This document shows positions 1-57,433 of a DNA stretch of 64,000 bases, one piece after another. Source of the DNA: an uncultured Gammaproteobacteria bacterium (GTDB taxonomy: Bacteria; Patescibacteriota; Microgenomatia; Levybacterales; GWA1-39-11); NCBI GenBank assembly GCA_964409875.1, contig CAYPEN010000001.1, forward strand, positions 356,275 through 420,274, written 5' to 3'. Both the position numbers and the translations under genes were made by a program. Below the pieces are notes generated by a model, which saw nothing but the letters and a program-made list of their open reading frames with translations, was not told where the DNA came from and made no database searches. Within the stretch, counting starts at the first letter, position 1. Each line of letters begins with the position of its first letter.

Positions 1-3000
1 GCAACTGACGGAACGATAACCGCCACAGGAGACATCAATGCAAATTCGGGAGTTTTGGCAACAACTCAAAGTTCAGCTTCCTTATTTAATACTAATGCAA
101 CAACTCTTACTATCGGTGGTGCTGCAACAACGCTTACCCTTGGCGCATCAACAGGCACCGCTACCATAAATAACACGACCGTTGTAGCACCAAACTCACA
201 ATTTGGTATCGGGACTGCTTCTCCAATTTCAGCATTATATGTAACCCGCCCACTGACTCTTGGCTCAACAGGGAAGGCGCTTGCGATATTTGACCAAATA
301 GAGAACCAGGATATTTTGACAGCATCCGCTTCAGGTGTCACGAAATTCACCGTTTCAAATACAGGAAACGTTACAGCCGCGGGGAATTTGGACATTACAG
401 GAACCTCCCAATTAACAGGTAACGTCACAACTTCAGGCGACCTTGCTGTTAATGGTGGAGACATTACAACGACCAATGCGACAGCTACCTTATTTAATAC
501 GAATGCCACCAACCTGTCCATTGGGGGTGCTGCAACTACCGTTTCACTTGGAGCAGGAACAGGAACAACAACCGTCAATAATAACCTGAGCGTATCCGGC
601 ACAACCACCTCAACCGGGCTTATTACAGCAAATGGTGGACTTACGGTTGCCTCCAACCAAACATTGACTGCAAACGGTTCAGTTGCAATTGACCCGAATG
701 GAGCAAATGACATTACTATTACGACTGACTTCTCTGCCGGTTCGTACCTTACTATTACCGGTCTTGATACCCAGACTGGAAATACCCTCTGCGTTGACGG
801 GTCTAATAATGTAGTCAAATGTTCTGCCGCTTCAACGACGTTGCAGTCGGCATACAATGGCGGTAACACTATAACCACTTCAGACAACAGGGATATCGCA
901 TTTACACTGTCAGACACAACTACCGACAGCAACTTTACCGTAACAACTGCCGATAACTCAACAAGTTACAGCGCATTTACAAGAGCTAACGGTGCCGGCA
1001 CTTCCGATCCATCGCAGCTCATACTGGTTGATAACCTTGATACTGACCGTGCAATTGCAGCAGGTATTAAAATTCAGGCAGCTGCTGGTGGCATCACCAA
1101 TGCACTTGATGTTTCAGATCCTGAGATTGTTAATGCGCTCTCCTTTGGCCTAAATGACATCATCGGTACACACGTAACAATAACCGGTAGTAACGGTAAC
1201 ATCGCAACCGATGGTACTGTCAATGCAACCGGGGATATTACAACCGGTGGGGACTTGGCAGTAAACGGCGCAACATCCGCTGACGTTACAACCACAACCA
1301 CCACCGCGACGGTATTTAACACAAATGCTACGACACTTAACATAGGTGGTGCGGCAACGACCTTAACGCTTGGTGCATCCACTGGAACTGCAACCATCGC
1401 AAATGGAACGGTTACATTCTCAAATGCAACGGCTTTTGACGCGCTTACCGCTTTGGCAAGAGTTGACTCACTTCAAGTCGGCGGAGGGTATGGTTCAACT
1501 GGGGTAACTGTTTCAAACACTGGTAACATTCAAGCAAACGGAACGTTAACTGTAGACGGACTTTCGACGCTTACAGGCGGAGTGACATCGCCTGGCAACA
1601 TTACGACGACCGGAACCGGAGCAATAACATCTGCCGGAACGCTTACCGCCTCAAACGGTTTGACTCTTACAACCGGTGCATTAAGCCTGACAGCAACCTC
1701 CGGTTCGCTCAGTCTTTCGGGTCTTGGAGCATCATCTCTCAATTTTGGGGCGAATGATGTCACCTTCACATCAGCCAACTTCAATACCACGTCAACCGGT
1801 ATCAACGGGACGGCAATTGGAGCAACTACCCCCTCGACTGGTAACTTTACCAATTTGACGACCACATCAAACGCATCGTTCTCCGGCAACTTGACGCTTG
1901 CAGGCGCCCCCCGCTCTATCCAGACGACGGAAAACAATACCCTAACTCTTGGTGGGAATACAACCGGCAATATTAATCTTTCGCCTCTTAACGGAGTAGG
2001 CATAGTAACTGTCAATGGAAATACCGTAGTATCTGGTTCTAATACTCTTACAGTCGGAACAGGCCTTACTACCCTTGGAGGAGCATTGAATGTGGCGGGG
2101 ACATCAACGTTTACAGGCAATATTTCCCAAACGGGGGCAACAACCTTCTCAACCGGGACAGGGAACGTTTCGTTAAATGGCAACACTTCGGTTACCGGCT
2201 CTAACACATTCACCGTCGGAACAGGGCTTACCACACTTGGTGGAAACCTGTTGGCGCAAGGGACAGCTTCTATTTCAGGCGACTTAACATTGTACTCGAT
2301 ACCTACGATTCAATCGGCTGCAAACCAATCACTTACTCTTGGGGGGAACACAACCGGGACAATTAATCTTAATGACAACACAAATGTACTGGGGAGCAAT
2401 ACCTTTACTGTCGGGACTGGAGCAACAACTCTAGGCGGAACTCTTGATGTTGCAGGTGTTGCAACGTTTACAAATAACATCTCCCAGACGGGGACAGCAA
2501 CATTCTCTACAGGAACGGGTAATGTTTCGTTAAATGGCAATACATCCGTAACCGGAACCAACACATTCACCGTCGGAACAGGTCTTACCACTCTTGGCGG
2601 AAACCTGTTGGCACAAGGGACAGCCTCTGTCTCCGGCGGACTTACACTTTACACAATTCCAACTCTGCAATCGACCGCTAACCAGACACTTACCCTGGGT
2701 GGGAACACAACAGGAGATATATCATTTAAACCGGGGAACAATACTTCAACCCTTTATCTCTCATCAGCAGGTAAAGTTGGCATAGGCACATCAAATCCTC
2801 TCTATACCCTTGATGTCATAAACGGAACTGCTAATACTGGTACCGGTGGATATGGAGCAAATCCAGGCAGCTTCTCTATTACAGGTCCCGATTTGGCAGT
2901 TGGAGCGGCAGGTGGTAATATGGTCTTTACAACAAACAGTAACTTTGCTGCTGATGCAGGAGGGTCTATTGCGCTAGGAGGCCGATATATCTCAGCATCA

Positions 3001-6000
3001 TCAAACGACACTATTTTTGCAAAAATTAAGGGAGCTAAAGAAAACTCTTCAAGCAACAATAGAAATGGATATCTCTCCTTTGCAACCTATAATCACAATG
3101 CTGATTTGATGATAGAAAGAGTAAGAATAGATTCTAATGGGAATGTTGGTATTGGTACAACATCACCATTGGCAACGCTTGACGTGGCTGGTTCGGCTAC
3201 CATATCTGGTGCTTTGACCTTGAATTCCGTCGCGTCAATTCAAACTACCAATAACCAATCTCTGACACTTGGTGGCAATACGACCGGAAATATTTATCTC
3301 AATAATAATACTCAGGTTTTAGGCTCGAATACCTTCACTCTCGGTGCCTCCGCTGCCCTTATCGATTATGGCACTGCTGACTTTAGGAATTCATCAGGTT
3401 TGACGGTCGGGGAAGATTTGGCTACAAACACTCCCGGCCAAATAAAATTCATTGGGGCCGGTGCGAACAACTTCTCAACGACATTTGTTGCAGGGACCCA
3501 AACCCAAAATGTAACCTACACCCTTCCTCCGGATGATGGAAATAGCAATTATGTTCTCGTTACTGATGGGAGCGGAGGTCTCTCATGGCAGTCATCCTCT
3601 GGAATTGGGGCTGGAACAATTACTGCCGTTGGAAATGTTCTTTCAGGAACGGCATTTACCGGCTCTGATTCTTCAGCTAACAAAGGTAACCAACTCGTCT
3701 TTGAGGGTTCTACGACCGTTGATGATGCAAATGACATTACGCTTACCGCAGTTAACCCCGTCTCATCTGTTACCTATACGCTTCCCGATATTGGCACTAA
3801 CAGCGATATTGCTCTTTTGGCTGGAACCCAGACATTCACGGGGGCAAAGACTTTCTCTAATGGAATCAATGTTTCAGGCGGGAACGCAACGATTTCTGGT
3901 ACCCTTACTTTCTATGGAGGTCCCCAGTCAATCCAAACCACAAACGCAAGCTCACTGACATTGGGCGGGGATACTACTGGAGACATTTTCCTCCGACCTC
4001 GAAATAGTACCGGTCTTGTGCATATCGTTCACGGAAACAATGGTAACGGAGGTTTGATTTTGACTGACTCTGAAACCGATGCAACAAATAAGACCGCAAG
4101 GATTAAGTCCACAGCTTACAATAGTGCCTCATCACTTCCCGTTACCATGATGTTGGCGGCAAATTCAAATACCAAAAATCAACTTCAAATAGGAGGGGGT
4201 TCGGGCTCTGAATATGCTACGACTGAAATTCTATTCAGAACTGCAACGAATCTGACGACAACTGCGGGTACCATTAGATTGTATGTAGGTGGAACAGACG
4301 GATATGTTGGCGTAGGAGACAACAATATTACGCCTGTTGCGCCATTAGATGTTCTCAATAGCGGATCGAGTGGAAATGGTGAGAAATTGGCGCTTCGAAG
4401 AAGCGGCGCCGGGGATGTTGGTCTTTCATTCCAACAAAATGGAGTTTCAGCTTTCGGAATTGTTAATAAGAGTGGTGCCGGTAACGGCCTTGCATTCATT
4501 GATAACTACTGGGAAGGGGACACAGGAGTGGAGGTTGCCAGGTTCTATGCTTCTTCCGGTGTCGGAATTGGAACGAATGGAAGTTTACCGTTGGGGACAT
4601 TGGATGTAAGAGGAATATTCGCAAATTCCGGCACACAACCTGTAGCTTCACTATCTGGAACTACCACCTTTGCAGGTCTATTAGTTGATAATGCAGGTTT
4701 TGGCGATCTTTTGACCGCATCAACATCGGGGGCAACTAAATTTGTTGTATCAAATAACGGAAGCCTTACTGCATATGGCTCAATTACTTCGGGTCAGGAC
4801 AAGCCAAGCGGAACCAACAATGTCGGAGGACAGCTCAAGCTCTACTCTGAAGGCGACAACGCATATTCGACGGTATTTAAAACCCAAACCCAAACCCAGA
4901 ATGTCACTTACACACTTCCCGCTGATGACGGCTCTAACAATTACGTTCTGACAACTGACGGGACTGGTGCTCTGTCCTGGCAGTCAGCGTCAGGAGTCGG
5001 TGCAGGGACGATTACGGCTGTTGGAAACGTTATGACAGGAACAGCATTCACCGGTAATGACTCATCGGCTCAGAAAGGCAATAACTTAATCTTTGAAGGT
5101 TCCACAACAACGGATGATGCAAATGACATTACATTGACCGCAGTCAATCCTGCTGCGTCTCTTACATACACACTACCCGACCTTGGGACCAATGGAACTT
5201 TTGCGTTCCTTGAGGGATCACAGACTTTCACAGGGGCAAAGACGTTCTCTGACCTAACAATTTCCGACACAAATGTTTCCTTCTCCGGAGGAAATACTAC
5301 TCTTAATTTCGGAGCAAACAACGCAACAATTGACGCGTCCAATTTACTTACCACCGGGAATGCTTCTATTTCAGGCAACCTGACCCTTGCTGGCGGTGCG
5401 CGTTCCATTCAATCTACTGCCTTCAATACCCTAACTCTGGGCGGCAGTACGACGGGCAATATTCTTCTGAGGCCACAGAATGGTACAGGCTTCGTAGGCA
5501 TTAATGTCGCAAATCCTCAAAGCGAGTTAGATTTGAATGGGGTGCTTTCATTTAGAGACGTTTCCGGATTCACTTCAGATGTTGGGACCATTCAGTATGT
5601 TACGGGAGGAGTTGGAAACGGATACCTACGATTTACGGGGCAGGGAACAAACGGTACGTTGGCCGAATTTAGGGATTGTTGTAACTCGGTATTTTCTATA
5701 GGCACGACTGGAAATAGAAGTGGGTTTGGTTATGGATTGGATGTGGGTGGTCAGTTGAGGGGAGATACATCTATTGGTTTATATGCTGATAATACAAATG
5801 ACACCTATCCTTCCGTAGGGTTTACAGCTTCAGGGACTCTCGCATTTGGAGCAGGTGGAGCAAGTGCGACAGATACGACCATTTCACGCTTCGCAAAAGG
5901 TGATTTAAGAACAACCAATACAATATTGCAAGTTCAGGGTGGAAATACAGGCGGTCGGGCTGCTCTTATAGTTGATCAAAATGGTTCGACAACAAACGAC

Positions 6001-27000: not shown

Positions 27001-30000
27001 ACATCAACTTCAAATTATGGAGCAACAACTACTGATACCAATACTTTTGGAAGCCTTTCATTCACGGCAGGACCTGCTCCTGTTGATGCAACATTTGCTC
27101 CAACGGGTCTTACTGTTGTTCCCAACTCTTCAACGGTTGATGGAACGTCAGATGTCATCTATGCTCCAAATGCTGATAACGTCTTAAGAATTGATACAAA
27201 GTACGGAGACGAGACGAATGGCATGGCTAAATACTACAATGCCAACTTTATTTCAGAAGACCTTATCGGTGACATCAGGGGCTACTTGCCATTTAATGGC
27301 TCTGGCAGCCTTGCAAATAATACGGCAATCACCGGTTCAACAGTGAAGGGCAATTCTTACATATCAAAGAATGCTAACGGAACCGGTATGGCGTATGGTT
27401 CAGGTGTCAGAGGAACAGGCCTTACCGGCATGACAACAGACGACTACATTTGTACTGGTTCAGGAAGTACTTGTGCAGATGATGCCGACTTTGATACGAC
27501 GACAGGAAGCATGACATTCGGAGCATGGGTAAAGAGGTCTTCAACAGGTTCTCTTCAAACAATTATGGCAAAGATGGGGAACGCCAATGCAGACCGCGCG
27601 TTCAGGCTTTCAATGAGTTCAACAGACTTCCCCACCCTTGAGGTAATGAATGGTACGGGAACCACAAGGACTGCTACCTCAGGTCAGGCAATAACAGACA
27701 CGACTAACTGGCACTATGTTGTCGGAGTATTCGACAACTCCGGCGGAAATCAGTATCTGTACGTTGATGGCGTTCAGGTAGCAACAACTACCAACACAAA
27801 TGACTCTGCCAACTCTGGTGTTGCATTCACCGTTGGTGCAGACCTCTCTGGCGCCTCAAACGCTGCAGCTGACTTCTGGAACGGTTCTATTGATGAACCG
27901 TTCTTCACAAGTGAAGTATTGTCCGCTACCCAAATCCAGCATATGTATGCTGTTGGACTTCAAGCTCTCCAAAACCACACCGCTTCCAGAGTCACAGGAG
28001 TAACAGGAGCTGATACCTATCAGAGGCTTTCGGGTGGTGGTAGTGCGGGTGTGGGTGTTTCAACTGCAACGTCAGTTGCAGTTGATGATAGTAATTCTAA
28101 GGTATTCATAGGTACAAGCGACGGTACAACAAATACCGGCGGCGTGTCGGTTATCTCAAATGCTTCCGATTCTCTGGTTGACCTATACTCTTCGGTCAAT
28201 ACTACGAAAGTTGACGACGGGAATAATACAATTGCAGCAAATGATGTGGTTGCTGTTTCGGTTTCAGGAAGCCCAACCAACGGTCAAGTTTTGGCTATTG
28301 GAGGTACAAATGACACTACCTATAAGGTCTGGGCTGAAACAAAGGATGTAAGCTTCCAGAACTTTATTGCCTCAAACTACAATCCCTTTGGAACAACACT
28401 AGTCCAACAGAACTTGAATGTAAATGGAATACTAAGTCTTAATAATGGAGGCATTGTATCAACGAGCACTAATTTCAATATCGACTTGCCTACCCTTTCC
28501 ACCTTCAGCATTTCAAATAGCTTGGGTACTATTCTTGCCCTGACCGATACGGCAACTACAGACACGCTCAGCCTTGGACTTGCAGGTTCCCGCAATGGCG
28601 CCATCTCATTCCAATCATCCGGCGCAGGAATTTCGGCACCGACAATTGCTGCAGACAGTCTTGGGAATTTGACCGTCCAGACAAATCAGTCGGGCACAAA
28701 TGTGACCGTCGGAAGCGGAAACGGAGCCATCAACATTGTTCCGACAAGCAACAACAACGTATTTGTATCACTTGGCTCCGGAGGCGCAACGGGAGATGTT
28801 CTTTACCAATCAAATGGAACGACATTCTCAACATTTACCGATACTGGGCGCGTCGGGGTAGGTAATTTCACCCCAACCGGATTCAAGTTTGAGGTTCAGG
28901 ATTCGCAGACTGCTTCTGCAGCTGCTCAAATTTACAATACATCAAGCAACACAGATGCTGACGGCCTTGTTGTGAAGCTTGGAAACACCTCGACCACGAC
29001 AGTATCAACGACAAATCATTTCATCAACTTTGAAACATCCGGAATTGGTATTGTCGGTAGCATCCAGGGTAATGGCGGTAAGAACGTCAACTACAAGACC
29101 AATGGTGTAGCTGACTTTTCTGAGTACATGAAGAAAGATCCGAATGAAGCTATACCTTGGGGTTCACTTGTTTGTCTTGGTACGGATGGAAATGTTCATC
29201 CATGCAACAACAACGGTGAGAAAGCTGTTGGAGTCGCTTCGGAATTCCCGACATTTACAGGAGGAGAAGATTTGGGTGACTCATCAATCACCGTTGGACT
29301 TTCAGGAATGGTGAATACCGTTGTTTCTAGCGCAAATGGTGACATCAATCCCGGAGACATGATTGCAGTATCCGCAACAACCGGTGTTGGGGTGAAGGCA
29401 ACCCAAGCTGGAGCAATAATCGGACGTGCTGTCGGTTCGTATTCCAATGCTGATACGAACGCAACAGGTAAGATTCTGGTTTCGGTTAATGTCGGGTACT
29501 ATGATCCGAATAATATTGCCACACACTTGAATTGGAACAATGGTACCCTTACTGCAGAAGGTGACCTGGTGACAACCGGCCAGCTTTCTGCAGGCACTGC
29601 TCTTCTTGGTTCAAGTGGTCAACTGTCGGTTGATGCTAACGGAAACATGTCGACGACCGGTGACATTATCGCCTCAAGTTTTGCTATTACAAACGGCAAG
29701 ATTTACTCCGACAACAATGGGAATCTTGTCAATCAGCTTGCAACAGATCTTAATGGCAACAACAATCCAACTAAGTTTGCCTTCAAGAATGCTGCCGGCA
29801 TGGAAGTTATGGGAATTGACAGTAATGGAAATGCGACCATTTCAGGAACTTTGACGACTAATATCGGTAACTACGATTTGGCAGAGGATTATCCGACCAA
29901 AGACGCAACAATTGAAGCAGGTGACGTTGTTGCGATTGATTCTGACAACGATACGCACATCACGAAGTCCCAGAAGGCATACGATACAGGCGTTATCGGT

Positions 30001-31563
30001 ATCTACTCTGAGAAGCCAGGTTTCAGACTCTCGCAGGTCGGTGGAATCAATGGAGATAAAGCAGTTCCGGTTGCACTTAACGGCCGCGTACCGGTCAAGG
30101 TCAATAATGAAAATGGACCAATTCATAAAGGTGATTACTTGACAACCTCCTCTACTCCGGGTGTTGCGATGAAGGCAACTAAGCCAGGACAGGTCATAGG
30201 TAAAGCATTACAGGACTTTAACGGAGCTAATGGCAAGATTACAGCTTTCGTGAATATCAGCTTTGCAGACCCAGGCAACTTTATTGCCAATCTTACCTCG
30301 GGCGATAAGACACTTTCATCAAGTGTTGTAAGTTCCGATTCAATTAAGCTTCCGCAGAATCTTGTAATTAACGGAAACGTTATCAATGGAAGCCTGTCAG
30401 ATGGTCTTCTTGCCCTCTCAGCAGGAATTAATAATACCCAGAGTGGAATTGACAGAATATCTCTGGCACTAGGCGAGACAAATGCGAAGACAGATGCCAT
30501 TGCCCTTAAGATTGCCTCACTTGAGGAGAAAAATGCATCTAACTCGGCTGCCATCGCAAAGGCCTTAGAGAATGGAGAGGAACTGGACGTCAAAGTCTCC
30601 TCCACCTCATCAGAGCTTGAGAATATTAATGTCAGAATTGAAGCAATACTTTCGCGTCTGAATGCGACAACAGCCTCGAATAGCTCCAATGTAGCGCTAG
30701 CAACCCCATCTGCAACCACAGCAACAGATAGCGCCTCTCCGAGCTATCTTGCAGTAACCGGAGGAAATGTCAGCTCGCCTGATAGCCTTATCAGCCAATC
30801 TGTTCCGACAGTCGATATAGCTACCCGCTCAACAGCTACGCTTCCAGCAGGAGACACCGATTCGCTTACTGTAAGAGACGGTCTCAAGTCTCTTGGCTCA
30901 ACATACCTTGGCAACACTACTGTTACAGGTGCTGTGACCGTTGCCGGACAAGCATACCTGTCCGACACAGACGTTGTAGGCAAGCTCACAGTGAATAACA
31001 CAATTACAATTACTGAAAACGCGGTAAATGTTCTGGGTGAGTCAACATCAAAAGACGAGGTGACCGGTGGCATTTTGTACTTGCAAAACGCTCCGCAAGC
31101 GGTCGGCCTTGATATCTTCTCTGGCAAAGTAACAATTGACAAGAATGGCAACCTCACAACCCAGGGCAGTGTCAATGTAAAAGGTAATCTCAATATTGAA
31201 GGTGCGATAACGGTTACTGCTACTGCGGGTGAGGAAATTAAGGCTCATGATGCGTTATATATCTCTGGCGAAAATACCGTAAAAAGAGCCGATGCAACAA
31301 TTGCCGAGCGTGCAAATGTAGTTGGAATTGCAGCTTCAGACACGAAGAAAGGCGCAATCGTTACTATCATCATAGGTGGGAAAGTAAAAGGATTCAAGAA
31401 CCTGCAGGCAGGAAAGAAGTATTACTTGCAAACAAATGCCGGTATTACCCCTACTCCTCCGCTAGGAAACGCAGTTTCGGTTCCTGTCGGTGTTGCATTC
31501 TCAAAGGATGAACTTCTCATCCAGCTCTCCTCAACGCAAGAGAATACGACCCAATCCAATTAA
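1..31563 (+). CDS. giant repetitive extracellular fibre/adhesin-like protein (>=10,502 aa inside window; 5' end upstream of window)
   Basis: Frame 1 is open from nt 1 (ATDGTITATGDINANSG... continues the repeat seen downstream) to TAA at 31561-31563. Thr/Gly/Asn/Ala-rich. Repeated LFNTNATTLNIGGAATT modules, 16 LC[VI]DGSNxVxKC units, ERVRIDSNGNVGIGTTSPLATLDV tail-fibre-like motif, LamG domain and two IMC-like domains near the C-terminus. Minus-strand ORFs inside it are V/P/A-rich antisense artefacts. Confidence 0.9.
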   Translation, partial: ATDGTITATGDINANSGVLATTQSSASLFNTNATTLTIGGAATTLTLGASTGTATINNTTVVAPNSQFGIGTASPISALYVTRPLTLGSTGKALAIFDQIENQDILTASASGVTKFTVSNTGNVTAAGNLDITGTSQLTGNVTTSGDLAVNGGDITTTNATATLFNTNATNLSIGGAATTVSLGAGTGTTTVNNNLSVSGTTTSTGLITANGGLTVASNQTLTANGSVAIDPNGANDITITTDFSAGSYLTITGLDTQTGNTLCVDGSNNVVKCSAASTTLQSAYNGGNTITTSDNRDIAFTLSDTTTDSNFTVTTADNSTSYSAFTRANGAGTSDPSQLILVDNLDTDRAIAAGIKIQAAAGGITNALDVSDPEIVNALSFGLNDIIGTHVTITGSNGNIATDGTVNATGDITTGGDLAVNGATSADVTTTTTTATVFNTNATTLNIGGAATTLTLGASTGTATIANGTVTFSNATAFDALTALARVDSLQVGGGYGSTGVTVSNTGNIQANGTLTVDGLSTLTGGVTSPGNITTTGTGAITSAGTLTASNGLTLTTGALSLTATSGSLSLSGLGASSLNFGANDVTFTSANFNTTSTGINGTAIGATTPSTGNFTNLTTTSNASFSGNLTLAGAPRSIQTTENNTLTLGGNTTGNINLSPLNGVGIVTVNGNTVVSGSNTLTVGTGLTTLGGALNVAGTSTFTGNISQTGATTFSTGTGNVSLNGNTSVTGSNTFTVGTGLTTLGGNLLAQGTASISGDLTLYSIPTIQSAANQSLTLGGNTTGTINLNDNTNVLGSNTFTVGTGATTLGGTLDVAGVATFTNNISQTGTATFSTGTGNVSLNGNTSVTGTNTFTVGTGLTTLGGNLLAQGTASVSGGLTLYTIPTLQSTANQTLTLGGNTTGDISFKPGNNTSTLYLSSAGKVGIGTSNPLYTLDVINGTANTGTGGYGANPGSFSITGPDLAVGAAGGNMVFTTNSNFAADAGGSIALGGRYISASSNDTIFAKIKGAKENSSSNNRNGYLSFATYNHNADLMIERVRIDSNGNVGIGTTSPLATLDVAGSATISGALTLNSVASIQTTNNQSLTLGGNTTGNIYLNNNTQVLGSNTFTLGASAALIDYGTADFRNSSGLTVGEDLATNTPGQIKFIGAGANNFSTTFVAGTQTQNVTYTLPPDDGNSNYVLVTDGSGGLSWQSSSGIGAGTITAVGNVLSGTAFTGSDSSANKGNQLVFEGSTTVDDANDITLTAVNPVSSVTYTLPDIGTNSDIALLAGTQTFTGAKTFSNGINVSGGNATISGTLTFYGGPQSIQTTNASSLTLGGDTTGDIFLRPRNSTGLVHIVHGNNGNGGLILTDSETDATNKTARIKSTAYNSASSLPVTMMLAANSNTKNQLQIGGGSGSEYATTEILFRTATNLTTTAGTIRLYVGGTDGYVGVGDNNITPVAPLDVLNSGSSGNGEKLALRRSGAGDVGLSFQQNGVSAFGIVNKSGAGNGLAFIDNYWEGDTGVEVARFYASSGVGIGTNGSLPLGTLDVRGIFANSGTQPVASLSGTTTFAGLLVDNAGFGDLLTASTSGATKFVVSNNGSLTAYGSITSGQDKPSGTNNVGGQLKLYSEGDNAYSTVFKTQTQTQNVTYTLPADDGSNNYVLTTDGTGALSWQSASGVGAGTITAVGNVMTGTAFTGNDSSAQKGNNLIFEGSTTTDDANDITLTAVNPAASLTYTLPDLGTNGTFAFLEGSQTFTGAKTFSDLTISDTNVSFSGGNTTLNFGANNATIDASNLLTTGNASISGNLTLAGGARSIQSTAFNTLTLGGSTTGNILLRPQNGTGFVGINVANPQSELDLNGVLSFRDVSGFTSDVGTIQYVTGGVGNGYLRFTGQGTNGTLAEFRDCCNSVFSIGTTGNRSGFGYGLDVGGQLRGDTSIGLYADNTNDTYPSVGFTASGTLAFGAGGASATDTTISRFAKGDLRTTNTILQVQGGNTGGRAALIVDQNGSTTNDLITASSSGATKFEVLNGGGIRIAAGNTIDNLTSGTLSIGTVNASTLNLGTATTGTTNVYGGNINLNGNTNVASGNTFTVVSGQAVITGQNSGGATTLRVNNHTSGGSIAVFQNAAVDVFSILNGGNVAATKELSVLGNVSAGTTTSLTSLYVDGQNSKGRAAFIVNQTASSSNDIFAASSSGTTKFLVANNGDTTISGTTNLNGGATVASGQTLSVLGPVSLDPNGANDITLTTDYTAGSYLNVPGLDTQVGTQLCVDGSNNVVKCAAGSNSLQAAYNGGNTITTSDNRDIAFTLTDTATDSKFTITNQGTANAFVINDTNGATNTLLELQSGGVQKLTIDELGNITTAGDVAVNGGDITTTNATATVFNTNATTLQIGEAATNISIGALTGSTTIHNAVNANGLLTANAGAIVPSGQAFDASGSATFVPNGTNSVTIATDADSFLKLTGLTTPGISGNALCIDASNNVTKCSSSTFTLQGAYNGGNTISTSDNRDIAFTLSNTTTDSNFSVTTATDSTGYSAFTRADGAGTSDPSQLVLIQNLDTNRALPVGLKIAGVSGGNVTTALDLTDSNITTAIALGTNNVNGTNFSITGSSGNITTSGDIAVNGGDLTTSQASATLFDTNATTLNLGGAATTLNLGAATGTATIANNTVSLSNATAFNALSALAKVSSLEVGGAYGSTGVTISSTGDIQANGTLTIDGTSTLTGNVTATGDIAVNGGDITSTSGTATLYNSGVSTVNIGSAATTVTLGAATGTTTVNNNLGVTGTLTSTGLAQFNGNALVPNDRSFDASGAATFAPNATNDVTFNTDSDSTIVLNGLQTATGTTLCVDGSNNIVKCSAASITLQSAYNGGNTITTSAGRDIALTLTDANFSATASAGSNGFSQFALANGSNANPANQIVLVENLDTNEGVTTGIKVQASAGGITNGIDLSDPELVNALALGANDVVATNFSITGSNGNIATNGTITATGDINVNSGTLATNQTTANLFNATATTLNIGGVATTLNLGASTGTATINNTTVNLANATTFTANSAAASFDSLTVGGGYGSTGVTVSNTGNIQANGTLTVDGISTLTGNVTTSGTINANGGTIATNQTTANLFTANATTLNIGSAATTVSLGAGSGTTTVNNALTSTGLITANGGLTVSSSQTLTANGPVSIDPNSSNDIAITTDFSAGSYINITGLDTQNGTALCIDGSNNVVKCANAAATLQSAYNNGNTILTSDSKDIAFTLSDTTTDSNFMVMTATGSTGYSAFTRADGAGTADPAQLVLIQNLDTNRAQPIGLKIAGVSGGNITTALDLSDSNITTAIALGTNNISATHFTLTGSNGNIATDGTITATGDITSTGNLAANGGTLSTTNSSANVFNANATTLNIGGAATTVSLGAGSGTTTVNNSLTVSGSAFDALSALARVDSLQVGGGYGSTGVTVSNAGTIQANGNLTIDGTSTLTGNVTATGDIALNGGDLTTTSGTATLFNANATTLNIGGAATTVSIGAGTGTTTVNNNLTVAGNGVYAGTSTFNGDVTISSDRYFNASGSAIFSPAGTESVTVNTDADSFLTLNGLTTPGVAGTTLCIDGSNNVTKCAASTFSLQGAYNGGNTINTSDNRDIAFTLSNTTTDSNFTVTTADGSTGYSVFTRANGSGTSDPAQLVLVDNLDTDRPVAAGIKVQAAAGGITNGIDLSDAEIVNALSLGANDITSTHFTLTGSNGNIATDGTITASGDINANSGTLATNQTTGNLFNATATTLNIGGAATTVSLGAGSGTTTVNNSLTVSGSAFDALSALARVDSLQVGGGYGSTGVTVSNTGNIQANGTLTIDGVSTLTGNITTSGTINANGGTIASTQSSFDLFTSTVTTLNAGTAATTLNLGATTGTATINNATVTLSNATAFNALTALAKVDSLQVGGGYGSTGLTISNAGNIQANGTLTVDGTSTLTGDVTAAGDVAVNGGDITTTAASATLFNTNATTLAIGGAATGLTLGASTGTTTVNNNLVVAKTSTFNGDVTISDSRYLNASGSAIFSPSGTNSVTVNTDADSFLKVTGLTTASGTELCIDGSNNVVKCSGVSVSLQGAYNGGNTIVTSDNRDIAFTLSDTTTDSNFTVTTAAGGSGYSYFALADGTNATPPSQLLLVENLDTNEALPVGIKIQSAAGGITTAIDLSDPEIVTALSLGANDVAATNFSVTGSNGNITTAGDIAVNGADITTSSTGTATVFNTNATTLNIGGAATTYTLGATNATGNIRGTTINFPNATTLSAAGAALTIDSVSVGGGYGSTGTTLSNTGDIQANGNLTIDGTSTLTGNVTTSGDIAVNGGDVTTTAASATLFNTNATTLNIGGAATTLSLGAGTGTTTVNNNLSVSGTTTSTGLVTANGGLTVSSGQTLTASGPVSIDPNGANDITVTTDFAAGSYLIVSGLDTQAGTNVCIDGSNHIVKCANAAVSLQSAYEGGNTIVTSDNRDISFTLSNTTTDSNFTVTTAADSTSYSTFTRANGGSGTNPSQLVLIQNLDSGNALPIGLKIAGVSGGNVTTALDLSDANITTAIALGANSISGTHFTLTGSNGNIATDGTITATGNINANSGTLATSQTTGNLFNTTATTLNIGGAATTYTLGATTATGNIRGTTINFPNATTISAGSAALTIDSLSVGGGYGSTGVSIGNTGNIQANGALTIDGTSTLTGNVTAGGDLAVNGATSADITTTTTTATLFNTNATTLNIGGAATTLSLGAGTGTTTVNNDLAVTGTTTATGLATFNGGATVATGQTFTANGASTFSPDSTNSVTVNTDADSFLKLTGLTTPGTAGSVLCVDASNNVTKCSANTITLQSAYNGGNTINTSNNRDIAFTLTNTATDSNFAVTTATDSTGYSAFTRADGAGISDPAQLVLIKNNDVDRALPVGLKIAGVSGGAVTTAIDLSDANITTALSLGAADVTATNYSITGATGNITTSGDIAVNGGDITTTQASATLFNTNATTLNVGGAATTLNLGAATGTATIANGTVTFSNATAFNALTALAKVDSLQVGGGYGSTGVTIGNTGNIQANGTLTVDGTSTLTGNVTASGDLAVNGATSADITTTTATATLFNTNATTLNIGGAATTLTLGAGGGTTTLTNNLAVTLNDNSVDALDIQEGTNNYINVNTTDGSENISFGNTTTNPTYSFLGTGATTFSGNINANSGTIATNQTTGNVFNTNATTLNIGGAATSYTLGATNATGNVRGTTINFPNATALNASSALATLDSVSVGGGYGSTGTTLSNTGNIQANGTLTVDGISTLTGDVTTSGDVAVNGGDLTTTAATATLFNTNATTLNIGGAATALTLGATTGTTSIRNNLIVSGTSTFNGDVTVSNARSFDASGSATFTPSGTNGVTINTDADSYLTLTGLSSSTGTPICLDGSNHVIACANATLSLQNAYNGGNTIDTSDSRDIAFNLSDTTTDSNFAVTTTTGSTGYSAFTRADGAGTADPAQLVLIQNLDTNRAQPIGLKVAGVSGGNITTGIDLTDSNLTTALALGANNVSATNFSIAGSTGNITTSGDVAVNGGDLTTTNATATLFNANATNLSIGSAATTYTVGSNTATGNIHGTTVNFNNATALNAASALATLDSVSVGGGYGSTGVSISNAGNIQANGDLTIDGASTLTGNSSVGGTFDVTGATTLHSTLAVTSTGTFGGDINANSGTIATNQTTGNIFTTNATTLNIGSAATTVSLGAGSGTTTVNNALTATGLITGNAGVTVPSGQTLSASGQSTFAPNSTNDITFTTDADSTIHITGLSDTTGTPLCLNGTNDVITCSGNSITLQNAYNGGNTIDTSDNRDIAFNLSNTTTDSNFAVTTTTGSTGYSAFTRADGAGTADPAQLVLIKNLDTNRAQPIGLKVAGVSGGNITTGIDLTDSNLTTALALGANNVSATNFSLTGSTGDITTAGDIAVNGGDVTTTSSTGNLFNANATTVNIAGAGTGVTIGANNSGTTTIRNAAVTFSNASTFDALSATAGFDTVNVGGGYGSTGTTLSNTGNIQANGNLTIDGTSLLTGAVTASNGITVSGTTTADIISSKTTANLFNTTATTLNVGGAATTLALGASTGTATINNLTLSLPNATTINATAATANIDTLNVGAGYGSTGVTVSNAGNIQANGDLTIDGLTTLTGNLTETGDIALNGGDLTSSASTFNIVNAGVTTLNIGGAATTVTLGAGTGTTTLNNNLTANLVDNNTDALDIQEASNNYININTTNGSENISFGNTTTNPTYSFLGTGASTFSGNINANSGTIATNQTTGNLFNTTATTLNLGGAATTLTIGATTGTASVRNANVTLPNALVGIGTNSPASALFVTRPANLAFTGKAVAIFDQNENQDIITASASGTTRFTVARTGDVATSGDVNVNGGDIITSTTGTATVFNTNATTLNIGGAATAISIGNGSGSTTVNNALTAAGTISANGGLNVATNQTLQALGQSTFTPSGTNGVTITTDSDSFLTLDGLQSSSGTALCVDGSNHVITCAAASQSLQAAYNNGNTINTSNNRDIAFTLSDTATDSNFTVTTAAGSTSTSKFVLADGSNATPPSQLILIDNADSNQALTSGLKVTASGGAGGGVTTALDVSDSSIVTAIDLGANDIAGTNFSVDGSTGDTTIAGTINANGGTIATTNTSASVFNATATTLNVGGAATSLTLGATTGTASIRNATLSLPNATTVNATGATANFSQVTTGGGYASTGTSITNTGDISAKGNLTIDGTSQLTGALTASAGITVSGASSADLISSKTTANLFNTTATTLNIGGAATTISLGAAGGTTTVNGGLTVASGKTLLAQGQSTFTPSGTNGVTINTDSDSFLTITGLSSVTGSAVCVDGSNHVGTCNAASQSLQAAYNNGNTILTSDNRDIAFTLSDTTTDSKFTVTTATGATGGSEFTRADGAGTADPSQLVLIKNLDTNRALPVGLKIAGVTGGNVTTAIDLSDTNITTALSLGVGDVTATHYTITGSNGNISTDGTLTVKGGTIGTNQASFDLLNATATTINFGGAASTLNIGATGGTATIANDTLSLPNATGINAGSAVLTIDSASIGGGYGSTGIALSNTGDVSANGNLTIDGTSQLTGAVTASAGITVSGASSADLISSKTTANLFNTTATTLNIGGAATTLSLGAAAGTTTVNGNLTVGANKTLTSTGAVSFTPSGTNGVTITTDTDSFLTVPGLTTTVGVQPAVCIDGSNHIVKCDATANNSLQTAYNNGNTIFTSNNRDIAFTLSDTATDSNFTVTTAAGSTSTSKFVLADGSNPTPAAQLVLIDNADANQPATAGLKVTSTGGGGVTTALDVSDASIVTGLALGGSAITGTNFNVASTGDITTAANIAVNGGSITTSGATGSVFDTNATTVTVGSAATSYTLGATTATGNLRGTTINFPNATTISAGSAALNVLSTAIGGGYGSTGLSITNAGDLSTNGNVTVDGTSQLTGAVTASAGITVSGASSADLISSKTTANLFNTTATTLNIGGAATTLSLGAAAGTTTVNGNLTVASSKTLSALGPVSLDPNAANDVTITTDYTAGSYLVIPGLDTQAGSILCVDGSNNVVKCAASSQSLQTTYNAGNTINTSDARDIAFTLSDTTTDSKFTVTTADGSTGYSLFERANGTGVADPSQLILVNNADTNRPVPTGIKVTSSGGGGVTTALDVSDSGITTGLALGATAITGTNFSVTSGGSITAAGDAAINNGNITTTSTGTAAVFNTNATTLNMGGDATAYTLGATTATGNLRGTTINFPNATTISAGSADLNILSTSIGGGYGSTGVTITNAGDISTDGNVVIGGTTTSTGLVTASTGLKVNGASQADITTDKTTATVFNSTATTLKLGEAATTVSIGAGGGTTTVNGALTVASGKTFTANGAVSLAPSGSNGVTINTPNGSSSYLSLLGLTGGAGTSLCIDGSNHVVTCSAGSSAATLQSAYNTGNTINTSDNKDIAFSLSDTSTDSKFTVTTATNSTGGTEFLRADGAGTNDPSQLVLIKNQDTNRALPIGLKVAGVSGGNVTTALDVSDANVVTGLALGASAITGTNFGVATNGDITTGGDIAVNGGDITTSNTTATVFNTNATSVNAFGDATTLILGANNSGTATIRNSTVTLSNATAFNATSATGAFSVLTTGGGYASAGTTIGATGNIQTKGALTIDSTSTLTGLVTASSGIKINGTTSADITTDKTTANIFDSTATTINLGGGATTALNIANGTTNYSAINIGNGNITSGTNTIAIGNGASGTGVEAITIGSTNSSSSLALNAGTGNISLSSAGTLSFTGSGASSTTTFNVPSSLASAFDIKQAGNDYLNISTNGTPSLTFGNGTTNPTYSFAGTGNVTITGDLIVNGGDVSATSGTSVNLFNTAQTTSLNVGGSADVALGGSSKTVTVGGNLTVNGATTSLASTAINLTGNGVTLDQSGTGTLSINTTTNRAITLGSGTLTLNGNTINLAGSAPAIAATTTNAALALDSNGSGALNLQGTNSTGNVNIAGGSGSTGCTITNSTGALVCAGSITSNASTGTVQQGFFTKDYNTKVISNTAGDDYFALATSGGANSLLSLSSSALTTSGVAAFNNAVTISGTAASSTYYGQKLAVTNNQATNADTVYGQYITFTDAGSLANTITGLYVDASTANTADTTYAAVFRNTSGAAGVVGIGTSAPTADLDISSAQTTGNVLKITDNSITSGNFITVSNKNANSVTPSILTLNDRDLTVGGHTDFKAPAGNGTISDVFVYDTTKDSDGGNWTDSDAARSSSWYNETLDHAASTCVEGTDDRCGQRAFPRKAIIVATNSGSNGANVSIYDAKDNSLWMQFQKSGSTDGMIGTATSNTISSVYALNGKLYVGNNGASAGGLYVIDFTRDTAYKYKATGNYNGSLPISSRNSANTWLAYTTTGNSLIPSATINHVRAAYIHGKDYFAVATAGGTRGAVGLFNYTTQTLIANFGANTNSTHVALTPNGTLYYTITSGSNNAIKAKYNAISASGNTQLASVVYGTTSTSNYGATTTDTNTFGSLSFTAGPAPVDATFAPTGLTVVPNSSTVDGTSDVIYAPNADNVLRIDTKYGDETNGMAKYYNANFISEDLIGDIRGYLPFNGSGSLANNTAITGSTVKGNSYISKNANGTGMAYGSGVRGTGLTGMTTDDYICTGSGSTCADDADFDTTTGSMTFGAWVKRSSTGSLQTIMAKMGNANADRAFRLSMSSTDFPTLEVMNGTGTTRTATSGQAITDTTNWHYVVGVFDNSGGNQYLYVDGVQVATTTNTNDSANSGVAFTVGADLSGASNAAADFWNGSIDEPFFTSEVLSATQIQHMYAVGLQALQNHTASRVTGVTGADTYQRLSGGGSAGVGVSTATSVAVDDSNSKVFIGTSDGTTNTGGVSVISNASDSLVDLYSSVNTTKVDDGNNTIAANDVVAVSVSGSPTNGQVLAIGGTNDTTYKVWAETKDVSFQNFIASNYNPFGTTLVQQNLNVNGILSLNNGGIVSTSTNFNIDLPTLSTFSISNSLGTILALTDTATTDTLSLGLAGSRNGAISFQSSGAGISAPTIAADSLGNLTVQTNQSGTNVTVGSGNGAINIVPTSNNNVFVSLGSGGATGDVLYQSNGTTFSTFTDTGRVGVGNFTPTGFKFEVQDSQTASAAAQIYNTSSNTDADGLVVKLGNTSTTTVSTTNHFINFETSGIGIVGSIQGNGGKNVNYKTNGVADFSEYMKKDPNEAIPWGSLVCLGTDGNVHPCNNNGEKAVGVASEFPTFTGGEDLGDSSITVGLSGMVNTVVSSANGDINPGDMIAVSATTGVGVKATQAGAIIGRAVGSYSNADTNATGKILVSVNVGYYDPNNIATHLNWNNGTLTAEGDLVTTGQLSAGTALLGSSGQLSVDANGNMSTTGDIIASSFAITNGKIYSDNNGNLVNQLATDLNGNNNPTKFAFKNAAGMEVMGIDSNGNATISGTLTTNIGNYDLAEDYPTKDATIEAGDVVAIDSDNDTHITKSQKAYDTGVIGIYSEKPGFRLSQVGGINGDKAVPVALNGRVPVKVNNENGPIHKGDYLTTSSTPGVAMKATKPGQVIGKALQDFNGANGKITAFVNISFADPGNFIANLTSGDKTLSSSVVSSDSIKLPQNLVINGNVINGSLSDGLLALSAGINNTQSGIDRISLALGETNAKTDAIALKIASLEEKNASNSAAIAKALENGEELDVKVSSTSSELENINVRIEAILSRLNATTASNSSNVALATPSATTATDSASPSYLAVTGGNVSSPDSLISQSVPTVDIATRSTATLPAGDTDSLTVRDGLKSLGSTYLGNTTVTGAVTVAGQAYLSDTDVVGKLTVNNTITITENAVNVLGESTSKDEVTGGILYLQNAPQAVGLDIFSGKVTIDKNGNLTTQGSVNVKGNLNIEGAITVTATAGEEIKAHDALYISGENTVKRADATIAERANVVGIAASDTKKGAIVTIIIGGKVKGFKNLQAGKKYYLQTNAGITPTPPLGNAVSVPVGVAFSKDELLIQLSSTQENTTQSN
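3520..5190. repeat. ~1.4-kb segmental duplication within the giant gene (YTLP.DDG.SNYVL.TDG.G.LSWQS...TYTLPD module present twice)
   Basis: Protein segments encoded at ~3520-3800 and ~4910-5190 are near-identical (QNVTYTLP.DDG.SNYVL.TDG.GALSWQS.SG.GAGTITAVGNV.TGTAFTG.DSSA.KGN.L.FEGSTT.DDANDITLTAVNP). Confidence 0.7.
6650..24100. repeat. in-frame tandem array of ~16 long repeat units (357-700 aa) inside the giant gene, each carrying a Cys-x10-Cys loop
   Basis: Cys codons of the LC.DGSN.V.KC motif at 6766, 7384, 8494, 9595, 10741, 12178, 13294, 14437, 16192, 17355, 19471, 20542, 21613, 22684 and 23755, plus a more divergent copy at 790. The last four spacings are exactly 1071 nt. 21244-21460 and 22324-22540 are near-identical over >200 nt. 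Confidence 0.85.
27440..27960 (+). other. LamG / concanavalin A-like lectin domain (Laminin_G_3-like) embedded in the giant protein
   Basis: Segment FGAWVKRSSTGSLQTIMAKMGNANADRAFRLSM...NWHYVVGVFDNSGGNQYLYVDGVQVATTT...FTVGADLSGAS...FWNGSIDEPFFTSEVLSATQIQHMY matches the LamG pattern (aWvk...W.hv...ylYvdG...F.G.iDE..f). Confidence 0.65.
29111..30285 (+). other. two tandem phage tail-fibre/spike-type intramolecular-chaperone (Peptidase_G2-like IMC) domains in the giant protein
   Basis: Copy 1 (29111-29508): ADFSEYMKKDPNEAIPWGSLVCLGTDGNVHPC...GKILVSVNVGYYDP. Copy 2 (29865-30285): DLAEDYPTKDATIEAGDVVAIDSDNDTHITKS...GKITAFVNISFADP. Both resemble the ADYAEYFEW...GDYILGVVS signature of phi29 gp12-type and Bacillus-prophage tail-fibre IMC domains, as recalled from memory. 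Confidence 0.55.
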
Positions 31564-31678: not shown

Positions 31679-32781
31679 CTAGTTCTGAGTTGTAATAATT
31701 AATTGAGGAGCAAACTGGCTTTCTTTGCTTCCAAAACTGACTTCTCCCGAAAGAGATTCATCATCTTTCTTTAAGATCCAGCCGAAGTTTGAAGAGCTAC
31801 TATTTAGAAAATCATTCAAGTCAGTCGTCACATTAAAATCAATAGTGCCGGTTTGATTGTTTACGATTGTGTTAGTTGCAGTGGGTAATGAAACGAATGG
31901 CAAAGTACTATTGTTTAGCATATCCCAGGAGGTTGCACAGTCGGTTAGTGTATTTCTTATATTATTATCTACAGAACAGCCCCAAGTTGCGCCTTGTCCC
32001 GTTCCTCGGTCCGGGTTAATTGCACCGTTTATAAATCCATTTCCTTCTACCCAGTCAGATGAGAGCCGATACAGTGAGATGGGGCCTACCTGTAGCGCTC
32101 CAATTATTGGCATTATTTACTATTTTTAATCGTAGGGTTGCATTTGAGATGGTTGAACTTCCTACTGCTGCCTGGATTTGCGATTGGTCAAATTTCACCA
32201 AGGCTCTATTCTTCCCGGTTGACTTCAAACGTAAAAAAGTAGATAGACCTTCATTTTCATTTGGATAATCTTTTTTAATCCATGTATCTGCGGAGGGTGT
32301 TAGTGTAATTGAATTCTGGTTTACTGTGGGATAATCGGATTCAAAGGGCATATTTTCAATCAGGAAATTAGGAGATACCGCTACCTGATTATCGCAGTCC
32401 TGGTTTGCATTTTCATAGACAATACTAAATCGTGCGATAGTATCTCCAAATTGAAATGGGTCACTGCCGAAAGTTCCGGATGTAGAAAATTGTGCCAATG
32501 GTACGATGTTTTGGTCTTGAATGCTATTGTTACTATCAAGCGGAGGATCTGACATATCTTGGGTCGAAGTATTGAGTGCTACCGAAAAAATCTGCAGGTG
32601 AGTTGCTTCCTGTGCAATCGCCAGTTAGGGCAGGAAGAGCAGCAATGTCGCTTGAGGTCCAGGACAAAGAATAATCCCAATTTCCATTGTTGTTATATGT
32701 CGATAAATGCCAGGCAAAAGATGGATTAACAATTCCGAACAAAAATATAAAGAGTCCTGTAAGTACTCCTAACTTTTTCAT
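31679..32781 (-). pseudogene. secreted DNRLRE-domain protein gene, split into three frames by two frameshifts (pseudogene, phase-variable gene or homopolymer sequencing errors)
   Basis: Three overlapping minus-strand ORFs in three frames (32536-32781 with signal peptide MKKLGVLTGLFIFLFGIVNPSFA; 32055-32555; 31679-32113). Together they read as one protein containing LRLKSTGKNRALVKFDQSQI...ISNATLRLKI...NNWSATG...YRLSSDWVEGNG...GATW, a DNRLRE-type domain. Deleting one base in the A6 run 32585-32590 fuses frames A and B. The second shift maps near the G4/C2 run at 32081-32086. Confidence 0.6.
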
Positions 32782-47757: not shown

Positions 47758-47873
47758 TAAAGGCAAGCTGCGCTTATCTAGCTGAACTAATCGTCTCCGG
47801 TAATAATTTAGAGGCAAGACTCATCACTTCTAAAACAAGTTTTTCTACATGTAATTGCCCAACCAGATGTATG

Positions 47874-47945
47874 TGGACGACGTTGGGATCGAACCAGCGA
47901 CCTCTTCGATGTGAACGAAGCGTTCTACCACTAAACTAGTCGTCC
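47874..47945 (-). tRNA. tRNA-Val (anticodon CAC)
   Basis: Manual cloverleaf: GGACGAC TA GTTT AGTGGTA GAAC G CTTCG TTCACAT CGAAG AGGTC GCTGG TTCGATC CCAAC GTCGTCC A. One C·A mismatch in the T-stem. No encoded CCA. Confidence 0.7.
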
Positions 47946-47966
47946 TCACCCACCGTATTTTCTTTG

Positions 47967-48041
47967 TGGACCCAAGAGAACTCGAATCTCTGACCTTTGC
48001 AATGTCAATGCAACGCTCTAACCAAACTGAGCTATGGGTCC
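47967..48041 (-). tRNA. tRNA-Val (anticodon GAC)
   Basis: Manual cloverleaf: GGACCCA TA GCTC AGTTTGGTTA GAGC G TTGCA TTGACAT TGCAA AGGTC AGAGA TTCGAGT TCTCT TGGGTCC A. Confidence 0.8.
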
Positions 48042-57411: not shown

Positions 57412-57433
57412 GCGTTCTATTGTAGCAAAAATG

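Follow-up and report, generated by a model that had tools for sequence, protein, structure and literature searches.

An open frame of more than 10,500 codons on a Levybacteria-type chromosome probably encodes a giant extracellular fibre with phage-related parts

Introduction

What protein could be worth more than 31 kb of uninterrupted coding sequence to a bacterium with a small genome? This question is raised by a stretch of 64,000 nucleotides from contig CAYPEN010000001.1 (assembly GCA_964409875.1, positions 356,275 to 420,274 of the forward strand; hereafter "the window", in whose coordinates nucleotide positions are given), in which a single giant frame occupies nt 1–31563. [quoted passage not shown] To our knowledge, the molecules with which they find and hold their hosts are undescribed for almost all lineages outside Saccharibacteria. 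After weighing the evidence set out below, we lean, by somewhat more than an even balance, towards the view that the giant frame encodes the extracellular part of a membrane-anchored, probably trimeric, cell-surface fibre adhesin of a Levybacteria-like CPR bacterium, i.e., a concrete host-recognition candidate for this type of CPR.

Results

The giant frame is conserved between species

Frame +1 was free of stops from nt 1 to 31560, i.e., over 10,520 codons, and closed with TAA at 31561–31563, while base composition predicts ~530 stops and the other five frames of nt 1–31563 contained 164–926. As nt 1 itself falls within the open frame, the 5′ end of the gene is cut by the window edge, in agreement with an earlier note which, reading the DNA letters alone, had described a truncated protein of >10,500 aa.

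1–31563, + strand: giant open reading frame (ORF), 5′-truncated, 10,520 codons plus stop; predicted extracellular part of a fibre protein

An orthologue, 91% identical by the scan of GTDB species genomes that identified it, lies on contig CAZMSF010000017.1, an independent assembly from different sequencing data. The 23.4 kb examined of this 24.6-kb contig form a single frame, open at both ends and collinear with window nt 4–20351 at ~79% nucleotide identity, including one 17.2-kb alignment. Across 6,743 aligned codons, protein identity was 89.6%, with synonymous sites near saturation (pS 0.625) and a dN/dS of ~0.06. Given a collinear open orthologue and this dN/dS, it is near-certain that the giant gene is genuine and under strong purifying selection. 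Since the orthologous frame extends 947 codons upstream of the point matching window nt 1, the full-length protein is probably at least 11,467 aa long. Closer relatives were not found elsewhere: a metagenome scan gave none closer than 62%, and a homologue search with the orthologue-upstream plus window sequence gave none above 60%. Exact-protein look-ups of neighbour genes returned only 18-kb Logan contigs, which end inside an 820-aa gene downstream of the giant gene. A distant homologue on the 1.32-Mb contig CAZDOJ010000001.1 is open over all 33.7 kb examined. An apparent ORF start at position 2915 of that locus was dismissed, since it stems from a run of N (locus positions 2950–3050), a masked stretch or scaffold gap that creates a false start and a frame change.

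With 10,520 codons inside the window, the product is "large" as West-Roberts et al. define it (at least 10,000 aa). The earlier note had gone further and called it one of the largest bacterial proteins, a description that does not hold next to the proteins of up to 85,804 aa reported in that source (10.1101/2023.11.21.568195).

Two further properties of the giant gene can be traced to its codon usage. Antisense open frames of 352–356 codons (17622–18677 and 19536–20603, − strand) are probably not genes, because the biased codon usage leaves frame −2 with just 164 stops. Likewise, G+C content is 46–50% across the giant gene (1–31563) vs 39–43% in window 32000–64000; its codons carry 75% A+G at position 1 and 39% C at position 2, and the amino-acid bias (Thr, Ala, Gly and Ser codons) explains these values without any need for horizontal transfer.

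The stalk consists of old, individually conserved modules

Five residues (Thr 18.1%, Gly 13.1%, Ala 11.5%, Asn 10.2%, Ser 9.9%) make up 62.7% of the product, against ~60% in the earlier note, with Ser and Thr contributing 28%. Among 42 Cys, 32 form 16 disulfide-type C-x9-C loops, all of which fit C[VIL][DN][GA][ST]N..[VI]..C. The number of loops was thus as first reported, while the literal pattern given for them, LC.DGSN.V.KC, fits 6 of the 16, and the statement that they hold the only Cys was slightly too strong: the other 10 are found in four short loops (8504/8515, 8774/8782, 9151/9158 and 9725/9735) and in an adjacent CC at 1893–1894. Every Cys other than this CC lies within a short C-x6-10-C loop.

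A hidden Markov model (HMM) built from the repeats recovered exactly 16 loop-plus-knob units, one at aa 212–403 and 15 between aa 2204 and 8060, as well as about 25 stalk units. Each module in alignment A1 proceeds from a T/G/N/A-rich stalk segment through the C-x9-C loop to a conserved knob of ~110 aa. The stalk as a whole covers aa 1–8400, with one module at aa 1–403, a differing region at ~420–2000, and then the 15 modules.

634–1209 (aa 212–403), + strand: first Cys-loop plus knob unit (HMM from alignment A1, 297 bits)
6610–24180 (aa 2204–8060), + strand: array of 15 modules of ~357–390 aa each (self-BLAST, alignment A1, HMM counts)
21268–21467 and 22339–22538, + strand: exact 200-nt repeat, copies 1 and 2, the second copy one module (1071 nt) downstream

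Paralogous modules within the window protein share 40–67% amino acid identity (self-BLAST) and mostly 60–85% DNA identity, and no DNA tandem array was reported by Tandem Repeats Finder. Orthologous modules, by comparison, are 92–94% identical between species (window vs CAZMSF010000017.1), i.e., far closer than the paralogous ones, which indicates that modules are conserved individually and that the array is not homogenised. Judging from these sequences, the module repeats are old and diverged. The exact 200-nt repeat is carried by modules that are elsewhere only 30–50% identical in DNA, and suggests a recent local gene conversion or else marks a spot where short reads could have led to a module miscount; it is the sole assembly hazard found in the giant gene.

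The earlier note had expected a beta-helix from structure prediction. For one module, a monomer AlphaFold2 model based on a 16-sequence alignment reached a low confidence (pLDDT 60.9, pTM 0.36) and contained no beta-helix: residues 12–250 had a pLDDT of 65–84 yet zero secondary structure, in an extended chain, and Foldseek returned no match to the model. Such a model would be expected if the stalk folds solely as an intertwined oligomer, a hint which proves nothing. Hydrophobic periodicity of the protein is weak (lag 9/18).

Beyond the stalk lie a propeller–LamG head and auto-chaperone-type domains

The modular stalk is followed by a head composed of a predicted beta-propeller and a LamG domain, and then by two to three auto-chaperone-type domains, the latter related to the intramolecular chaperones (IMC) of phage fibres.

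2746–3468 (aa 916–1156), + strand: phage tail-fibre-like segment within the stalk (PHROG phrog_18345, E 5.3e-10; phrog_9942, E 1e-9)
26164–28482 (aa 8722–9494), + strand: head cassette, a predicted seven-bladed beta-propeller with inserted LamG (structure model)
27466–27939 (aa 9156–9313), + strand: LamG/concanavalin-A-like lectin domain (Pfam PF13385)
29104–29505 (aa 9702–9835), + strand: auto-chaperone (Peptidase_G2/IMC)-like beta domain, copy 1 (PF11962, profile A3)
29869–30270 (aa 9957–10090), + strand: auto-chaperone-like beta domain, copy 2 (alignment A3, profile)
30499–30663 (aa ~10167–10221), + strand: probable alpha-helical/coiled-coil stretch (sequence reading; low confidence)
31201–31560 (aa 10401–10520), + strand: terminal beta domain, divergent copy 3 of the same fold class (phrog_4368, PF09956, A3)

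The tail-fibre-like segment includes VGIGTSNP (aa 926) and VGIGTTSP (aa 1049); the latter, at nt 3145–3168, falls where the earlier note had seen it (~3120–3200), and similar motifs occur at aa 68, 926, 6320 and 8659. The LamG domain reported in the same note belongs to PF13385 (E 5.4e-21, 75.8 bits vs a cut-off of 27.6, profile positions 6–151 of 151). In the predicted structure, its jellyroll is set between blades of the propeller, an element which that note had not mentioned, and a Foldseek search with the LamG region matched phage LamG-like jellyroll structural proteins.

PF11962 matched copy 1 of the beta domains at 24.0 bits vs a cut-off of 25 (E 2.9e-5, profile positions 44–97 of 228), and homologous copies in relatives, P0015 and P0019 among them, passed this threshold (best E 2.4e-10). 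Besides PF11962, the single copies resembled phage cement and decoration families at sub-threshold level. Copy 2 gave weak matches to PF23982, PF09956 and phrog_6427/673, while copy 3, with 23% identity to the other copies in A3, matched phrog_4368 (E 4.7e-12) and PF09956 (E 5e-4). The segment between copies 2 and 3 also includes a beta-rich part, and for the coiled-coil stretch a faint resemblance to ZapB (E 0.24) was the lone match. When the raw C-terminal 1,920 aa were searched by sequence against PDB, nothing useful emerged. Profile A3, composed of the window beta-domain copies and their homologues and searched against PDB, matched the C-terminal auto-chaperone of phi29 gp12 (3gqh_A, E 8e-7; 6qz9_A, E 7.6e-6; also 3suc_A; range to 8e-5) as well as the tailspike Dpo31 chaperone domain (E 1.2e-4). 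The alignment opens exactly at the Asp that begins the 163-residue chain 3gqh_A and is next after Ser691 in the full-length chain, such that A9704/D9705-F-S-E (copy 1) and Y9958/D9959-L-A-E (copy 2) align with S691/D692-F-A-E of gp12 (6qz9_A; the slash marks the bond before Asp). Xiang et al. (2009) reportedly found that gp12 cleaves itself at this Ser-Asp bond once the domain has assisted in folding of the trimer. By sequence homology, we interpret these regions as two clear domains and one divergent domain of the phi29 gp12 auto-chaperone type.

The IMC domains that the earlier note had placed near the C-terminus are therefore of the G2/gp12 type, but internal and repeated rather than terminal, and not of the S74 type, since none of the 10,520 aa matched PF13884 (S74) at E ≤ 0.01. 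Among the three Pfam families that it had named, PF13385 was found, PF11962 narrowly missed its cut-off and PF13884 was absent; its overall picture of tail-fibre-type, IMC-type and LamG parts combined in a small-genome organism was upheld. Pfam and NCBIfam searches with 1,000-aa chunks of the window protein detected no RTX, BIg, two-partner secretion (TPS), autotransporter or LPXTG signals, and NCBIfam gave no match in it. The 10,520-aa part seen contains no hydrophobic segment of transmembrane (TM) strength.

Relatives share the stalk module and differ in their ends

Among 1.84 billion, the module profile matched 1,535 cluster representatives at E ≤ 1e-3 and 204 at E ≤ 1e-30. The largest among the best 150 of these matches had ≤4,611 aa. 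Many related loci are filled by frames of 4,800–7,200 codons which run off both ends, and giant members are thus usually fragmented. Complete smaller paralogues, of 2,300–5,400+ aa, start in one of three ways. In the first type, two tandem integrase-type SAM-like domains (PF02899, E 1.4e-20; XerC/D N-terminal-like) precede a TM helix at ~350–390 (loci L011 (795–2294), L017, L020, L022, L027, L028 and L035). The second type begins with a MerR-type helix-turn-helix (HTH; E 2e-11), followed by a TM helix at aa ~144–209 (L013, L025 and L037), and the third with a short signal anchor alone (L014 and L029). Just past the TM helix of L011 lies a weak match to the N-terminal domain of Bdellovibrio MAT fibres (Bdello_MAT_N, NF053851; 27.3 bits vs a cut-off of 60). 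In the first two types, a DNA-binding-type cytoplasmic domain is thus fused to an extracellular fibre of 2,000–5,400+ aa.

At the other end, relatives with the same stalk module terminate in S74 (PF13884, in P0033, P0299, P0300, P0047, P0073 and P0320), G2, LamG or CBM5/12 domains. The giant relative L042 shares the final 750 aa of the window protein (53% identity), and the propeller–LamG cassette was in none of the giant relatives examined. Varied C-terminal domains on a shared module, and a cassette absent from giant relatives, lead us to infer a mosaic family with swappable heads on a common stalk, and several members are encoded per genome. Public annotations go no further than "beta strand repeat-containing protein", "hemagglutinin family protein" or "hypothetical". 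Literature searches found no paper describing this CPR fibre family, in line with the earlier note's view of an undescribed family, although the MAT fibres of Bdellovibrio (PMC10769870) are a close functional analogue.

A model for fibre assembly and attachment

Taken together, the lack of a TM segment, Cys confined almost entirely to short loops, PHROG tail-fibre matches and the architecture of the paralogues make it very probable that the product is an extracellular fibre. We are less sure, although still on the favourable side, that this fibre is an adhesin, an attachment role suggested by its domains and made plausible by cultivated Saccharibacteria, which need several adhesins for epibiotic growth (PMC10633639, PMC11665869). 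For a trimeric state with a functional auto-chaperone, the homologies leave the balance about even.

By analogy with the complete paralogues, one N-terminal helix following a small cytoplasmic domain would anchor the protein in the membrane, and the chain would be exported unfolded. The C-terminal auto-chaperone domains, along with the probable helical stretch, might then nucleate trimerisation, and folding would zip up the stalk from the C-terminus back towards the N-terminus, as in phage fibres. Self-cleavage at A9704/D9705 or Y9958/D9959 is possible and would leave ~200 residues between the propeller–LamG head and the mature tip. On the surface of a host or partner cell, glycans or proteins would be the targets bound by the fibre, and swapping of head cassettes among members could provide each genome with a repertoire of specificities. 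Scaling from solved MAT fragments, 142 Å long for 370 residues and 95 Å long for 334 (PMC10769870), gives an order-of-magnitude guess of ~0.3–0.4 µm for the fibre, which would exceed the average CPR cell diameter of ~0.2 µm (PMC7906910).

Several points weigh against such a trimeric, membrane-anchored adhesin. The N-terminus, with any anchor or signal, lies outside the window; trimerisation is deduced just from homology and a poor monomer model; and the fibre length is extrapolated from unrelated fibres. Auto-chaperone-like copies 1 and 2 are internal and repeated, 815 and 560 aa from the end, and Ala or Tyr stands in for Ser ahead of the conserved Asp. As the best window copy falls just under the Pfam threshold, it may be that self-cleavage has disappeared and that the domains are merely structural knobs. 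Propellers and LamG domains are also known from enzymes and sensors.

Alternative explanations

The same C-terminal domains are read differently if the protein is a monomeric, uncleaved adhesin with an extender and a head, similar to RTX/LapA/MpIBP or filamentous haemagglutinin (FHA), in which the modules form a single-chain solenoid with knobs and the auto-chaperone-like domains are plain structural beta-sandwich knobs. We consider this unlikely but deserving of real weight, since the IMC-like domains of the window do lie internally, in more than one copy and with sub-threshold Pfam scores, and a stalk-then-head plan is also that of RTX adhesins. Furthermore, a sub-threshold match to bactofilin, a single-chain beta-helix, lies at aa 5042–5083, and relatives are named "beta strand repeat-containing protein" at NCBI and, for one of them at JGI, "fibronectin-binding autotransporter adhesin". 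However, RTX, BIg, TPS and autotransporter domains were not detected in the window protein, the AlphaFold2 monomer made no beta-helix of the stalk despite a 16-sequence alignment, and both the homology to trimeric phage fibre parts and chaperones and the S74 domains of relatives favour trimers. A protein with 28% Ser and Thr, with a Wzy_C and TPR membrane protein and cell-wall enzymes encoded nearby and several family members per genome, might instead be an S-layer-like or glycocalyx envelope component, i.e., a heavily glycosylated coat, rich in Thr and Ser, which would shield or space the cell without specific adhesion. This we regard as improbable: lattice-forming proteins do not resemble a chain of >10,000 aa that carries a distinct lectin-type head and parts of phage receptor-binding type, and modules conserved individually across species with heads swapped among paralogues are typical of recognition proteins.

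Two other possibilities turn on the cytoplasmic domains of the paralogues. Complete paralogues join two Phage_int_SAM_1 domains or a MerR HTH to one TM helix and a fibre, and one relative is named "MerR family DNA-binding transcriptional regulator" at NCBI, so that the fibre could be the extracellular input of a contact sensor, a ToxR-like one-component TM regulator whose cytoplasmic SAM-like or MerR domain would react when the fibre is pulled or bound. Yet this gene starts beyond the window edge, paralogues L014 and L029 have a short signal anchor alone, and the SAM-like domain may be a mere cytoplasmic anchoring or oligomerisation module; we see little probability in this option. Slightly less improbable, in our judgement, but still a long shot, is a combination of both functions, where the gene is the largest member of an undescribed CPR-wide family whose phage-derived, self-assembling fibre, several cell diameters long and joined via a single membrane helix to a DNA-binding-type domain, captures the host and reports the contact. 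It would act as a mechanical one-component "fishing line" sensor, and each of its 16 or more modules would be kept because fibre length and register matter. If true, one molecule would both catch a host cell and signal contact directly to the chromosome. Finally, an artefact (repeat assembly chimera, pseudogene or phage contig) could be suspected from the exact 200-nt repeat between adjacent modules, the frameshifted gene immediately downstream and the phage-like domains. This explanation is already largely refuted, and we assign it next to no probability: the independent orthologue keeps the module order over 20 kb at a dN/dS of ~0.06, other repeats are mostly 60–85% identical in DNA, and around the gene lie housekeeping genes and tRNAs but no phage genes. 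Specifically, an assembly chimera was rejected on the strength of the collinear orthologue, and a prophage or phage contig on that of the housekeeping and tRNA neighbours. A polymorphic toxin or contact-dependent inhibition (CDI) protein was likewise rejected, as no toxin or TPS domains were found.

Comparison with known fibres and giant proteins

Domesticated phage-fibre adhesins and giant surface adhesins are both already known kinds of protein, and what stands out here is to find so large a gene in a CPR genome. The closest comparison is with the MAT fibres of Bdellovibrio bacteriovorus, phage-tail-fibre-like surface fibres of a bacterium that also lives on other bacteria (PMC10769870). Both families have several members per genome, mosaic and swappable C-terminal heads (in MATs, lectin folds and others), IMC-bearing and IMC-less subgroups, and a near-match in the capping-loop motif (VGIGTxxPxxxL here vs V-G-G/N-pi-x-x-P-x-x-x-L). 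Conversely, the window protein is ~10 times longer (>10,500 vs ~1,000 aa), its chaperone is of the G2 (phi29 gp12) type as opposed to S74, and no description of MATs includes its C-x9-C loop-plus-knob modules. MATs form intertwined trimeric fibres of the beta-prism or beta-helix type, whereas the monomer model of one window module was an extended chain. Its paralogues use a TM helix after a SAM-like or MerR domain, while MATs use a signal peptide, and it belongs to a monoderm-like CPR bacterium. MATs are defined by a ~130-aa beta-rich N-terminal domain after the signal peptide (NF053851). This domain would lie outside the window and is sub-threshold in paralogues, and the chaperone type, module and 10-fold length differ, hence we do not class the window protein as a MAT, even though by analogy it may work like one. 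On our preferred interpretation as a surface adhesin, the use of domesticated phage fibres for cellular adhesion would extend from Bdellovibrio to a second, unrelated cell-dependent group, at 10 times the size.

With phi29 gp12 (PF11962 Peptidase_G2), the protein shares homologous C-terminal beta domains, with D-[FL]-[SA]-E kept in copies 1 and 2. It differs in having two to three copies, 815, 560 and 0 aa from the end, where gp12 has a single terminal domain, in the Ala or Tyr that replaces Ser before the Asp, and in lacking a pectin-lyase-type beta-helix ahead of the domain. Likewise, the PHROG matches at aa 916–1156 and the LamG fold link it to phage tail fibres and LamG jellyroll proteins; unlike these, it is encoded by a chromosomal cellular gene, is far larger than any phage fibre and has its LamG inserted in a beta-propeller.

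Giant adhesins, i.e., the RTX proteins MpIBP, LapA and SiiE, Giant1-5 of Apilactobacillus kunkeei and a Mobiluncus adhesin of 7,651 aa (PMC10619420), have a comparable plan of anchor, long repetitive extender and distal ligand-binding domains. The share of a small genome is comparable as well: the five A. kunkeei genes represent 6% of a 1.5-Mb genome (PMC12863079), and related contigs of 0.84–1.32 Mb from metagenome-assembled genomes (MAGs) look like near-complete genomes, of which the giant gene (≥31.5 kb) would take up roughly 3%. A bacterium whose relatives have genomes of ~0.8–1.3 Mb would thus devote ~3% of its DNA to one gene, all modules of which are under strong purifying selection. 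Contrary to these adhesins, the window protein has no Ig-like/BIg, RTX, LPXTG or type I secretion system (T1SS) signals, and has an unrelated repeat unit and phage-derived parts. As described by West-Roberts et al. (10.1101/2023.11.21.568195), the large and giant proteins of Omnitrophota and others are similar in their ≥10,000 aa, their ultra-small host-dependent bacterium and their proposed role in attachment to prey or host, but reach 30,000–85,804 aa and have many TM regions and SecA-DEAD-like domains. The part of the protein seen here had no TM-strength segments, no SecA DEAD helicase domain (Pfam) and no sequence relationship to these giants. In the section and term searches covered, the same study does not name CPR among the enriched phyla.

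Host and gene neighbourhood

Encoded elsewhere in the window are PheT, PheS, a NUDIX protein, L20, L35, IF3, ThrRS, an HD protein, DUF5665 and DUF5660 proteins, VanY- and TerC-family proteins, a GH18 enzyme, two penicillin-binding proteins (PBPs) and eight tRNAs. It includes a 287-aa trigger factor without peptidyl-prolyl isomerase (PPIase) domain (51270–52133), tRNA clusters Val-Val (47873–48041) and Gly-Phe-Val-Leu (57433–57951) plus two lone tRNA-Leu genes, and a cell-wall gene group at 59081–63624 (GH18, PBP5-type carboxypeptidase, class A PBP), all of which is typical content of a CPR chromosome. A 100%-identical ThrRS (P0176) is carried by an NCBI contig of 423,548 bp. Relatives of ThrRS at 66–70% identity are named as Candidatus Levybacteria, "Patescibacteria group" and, in one case, Candidatus Saccharimonadales, and relatives of the fibre are found in Levyibacteriota MAGs. 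With housekeeping neighbours, no phage genes and these relatives of ThrRS and of the fibre, the window is, to judge by gene content, a Levybacteria-type CPR cellular chromosome and not a phage. Many TPA MAGs labelled "uncultured Gammaproteobacteria bacterium" (CAZMSF, CAZDOJ, CAYTCO and others) bear Levybacteria-type giant fibre genes, and this label looks wrong for such MAGs, one of them consisting of a single contig of 1.32 Mb.

Just downstream of the giant gene, three ORFs of 81 aa (with a signal peptide), 166 aa and 144 aa (31679–32781, − strand) make up one frameshift-split secreted protein with a DNRLRE/CBM96 domain, positions 1–63 of NF033679 being matched in one ORF and 74–164 in the next; this gene is either a pseudogene or the product of an indel error. 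It is followed by tandem paralogues of 826 and 820 aa (32852–35332 and 35372–37834, − strand), 47% identical, each with an N-terminal hydrophobic anchor and no recognisable family. Located between the giant gene and a Wzy_C gene, they could be envelope partners of the fibre. The Wzy_C gene itself (37845–40148, − strand), 6 kb from the fibre gene, encodes a 767-aa protein of the O-antigen ligase/PglL type with ~13 TM segments and a C-terminal TPR, a candidate enzyme for the O-glycosylation of surface proteins or for polymer ligation to them.

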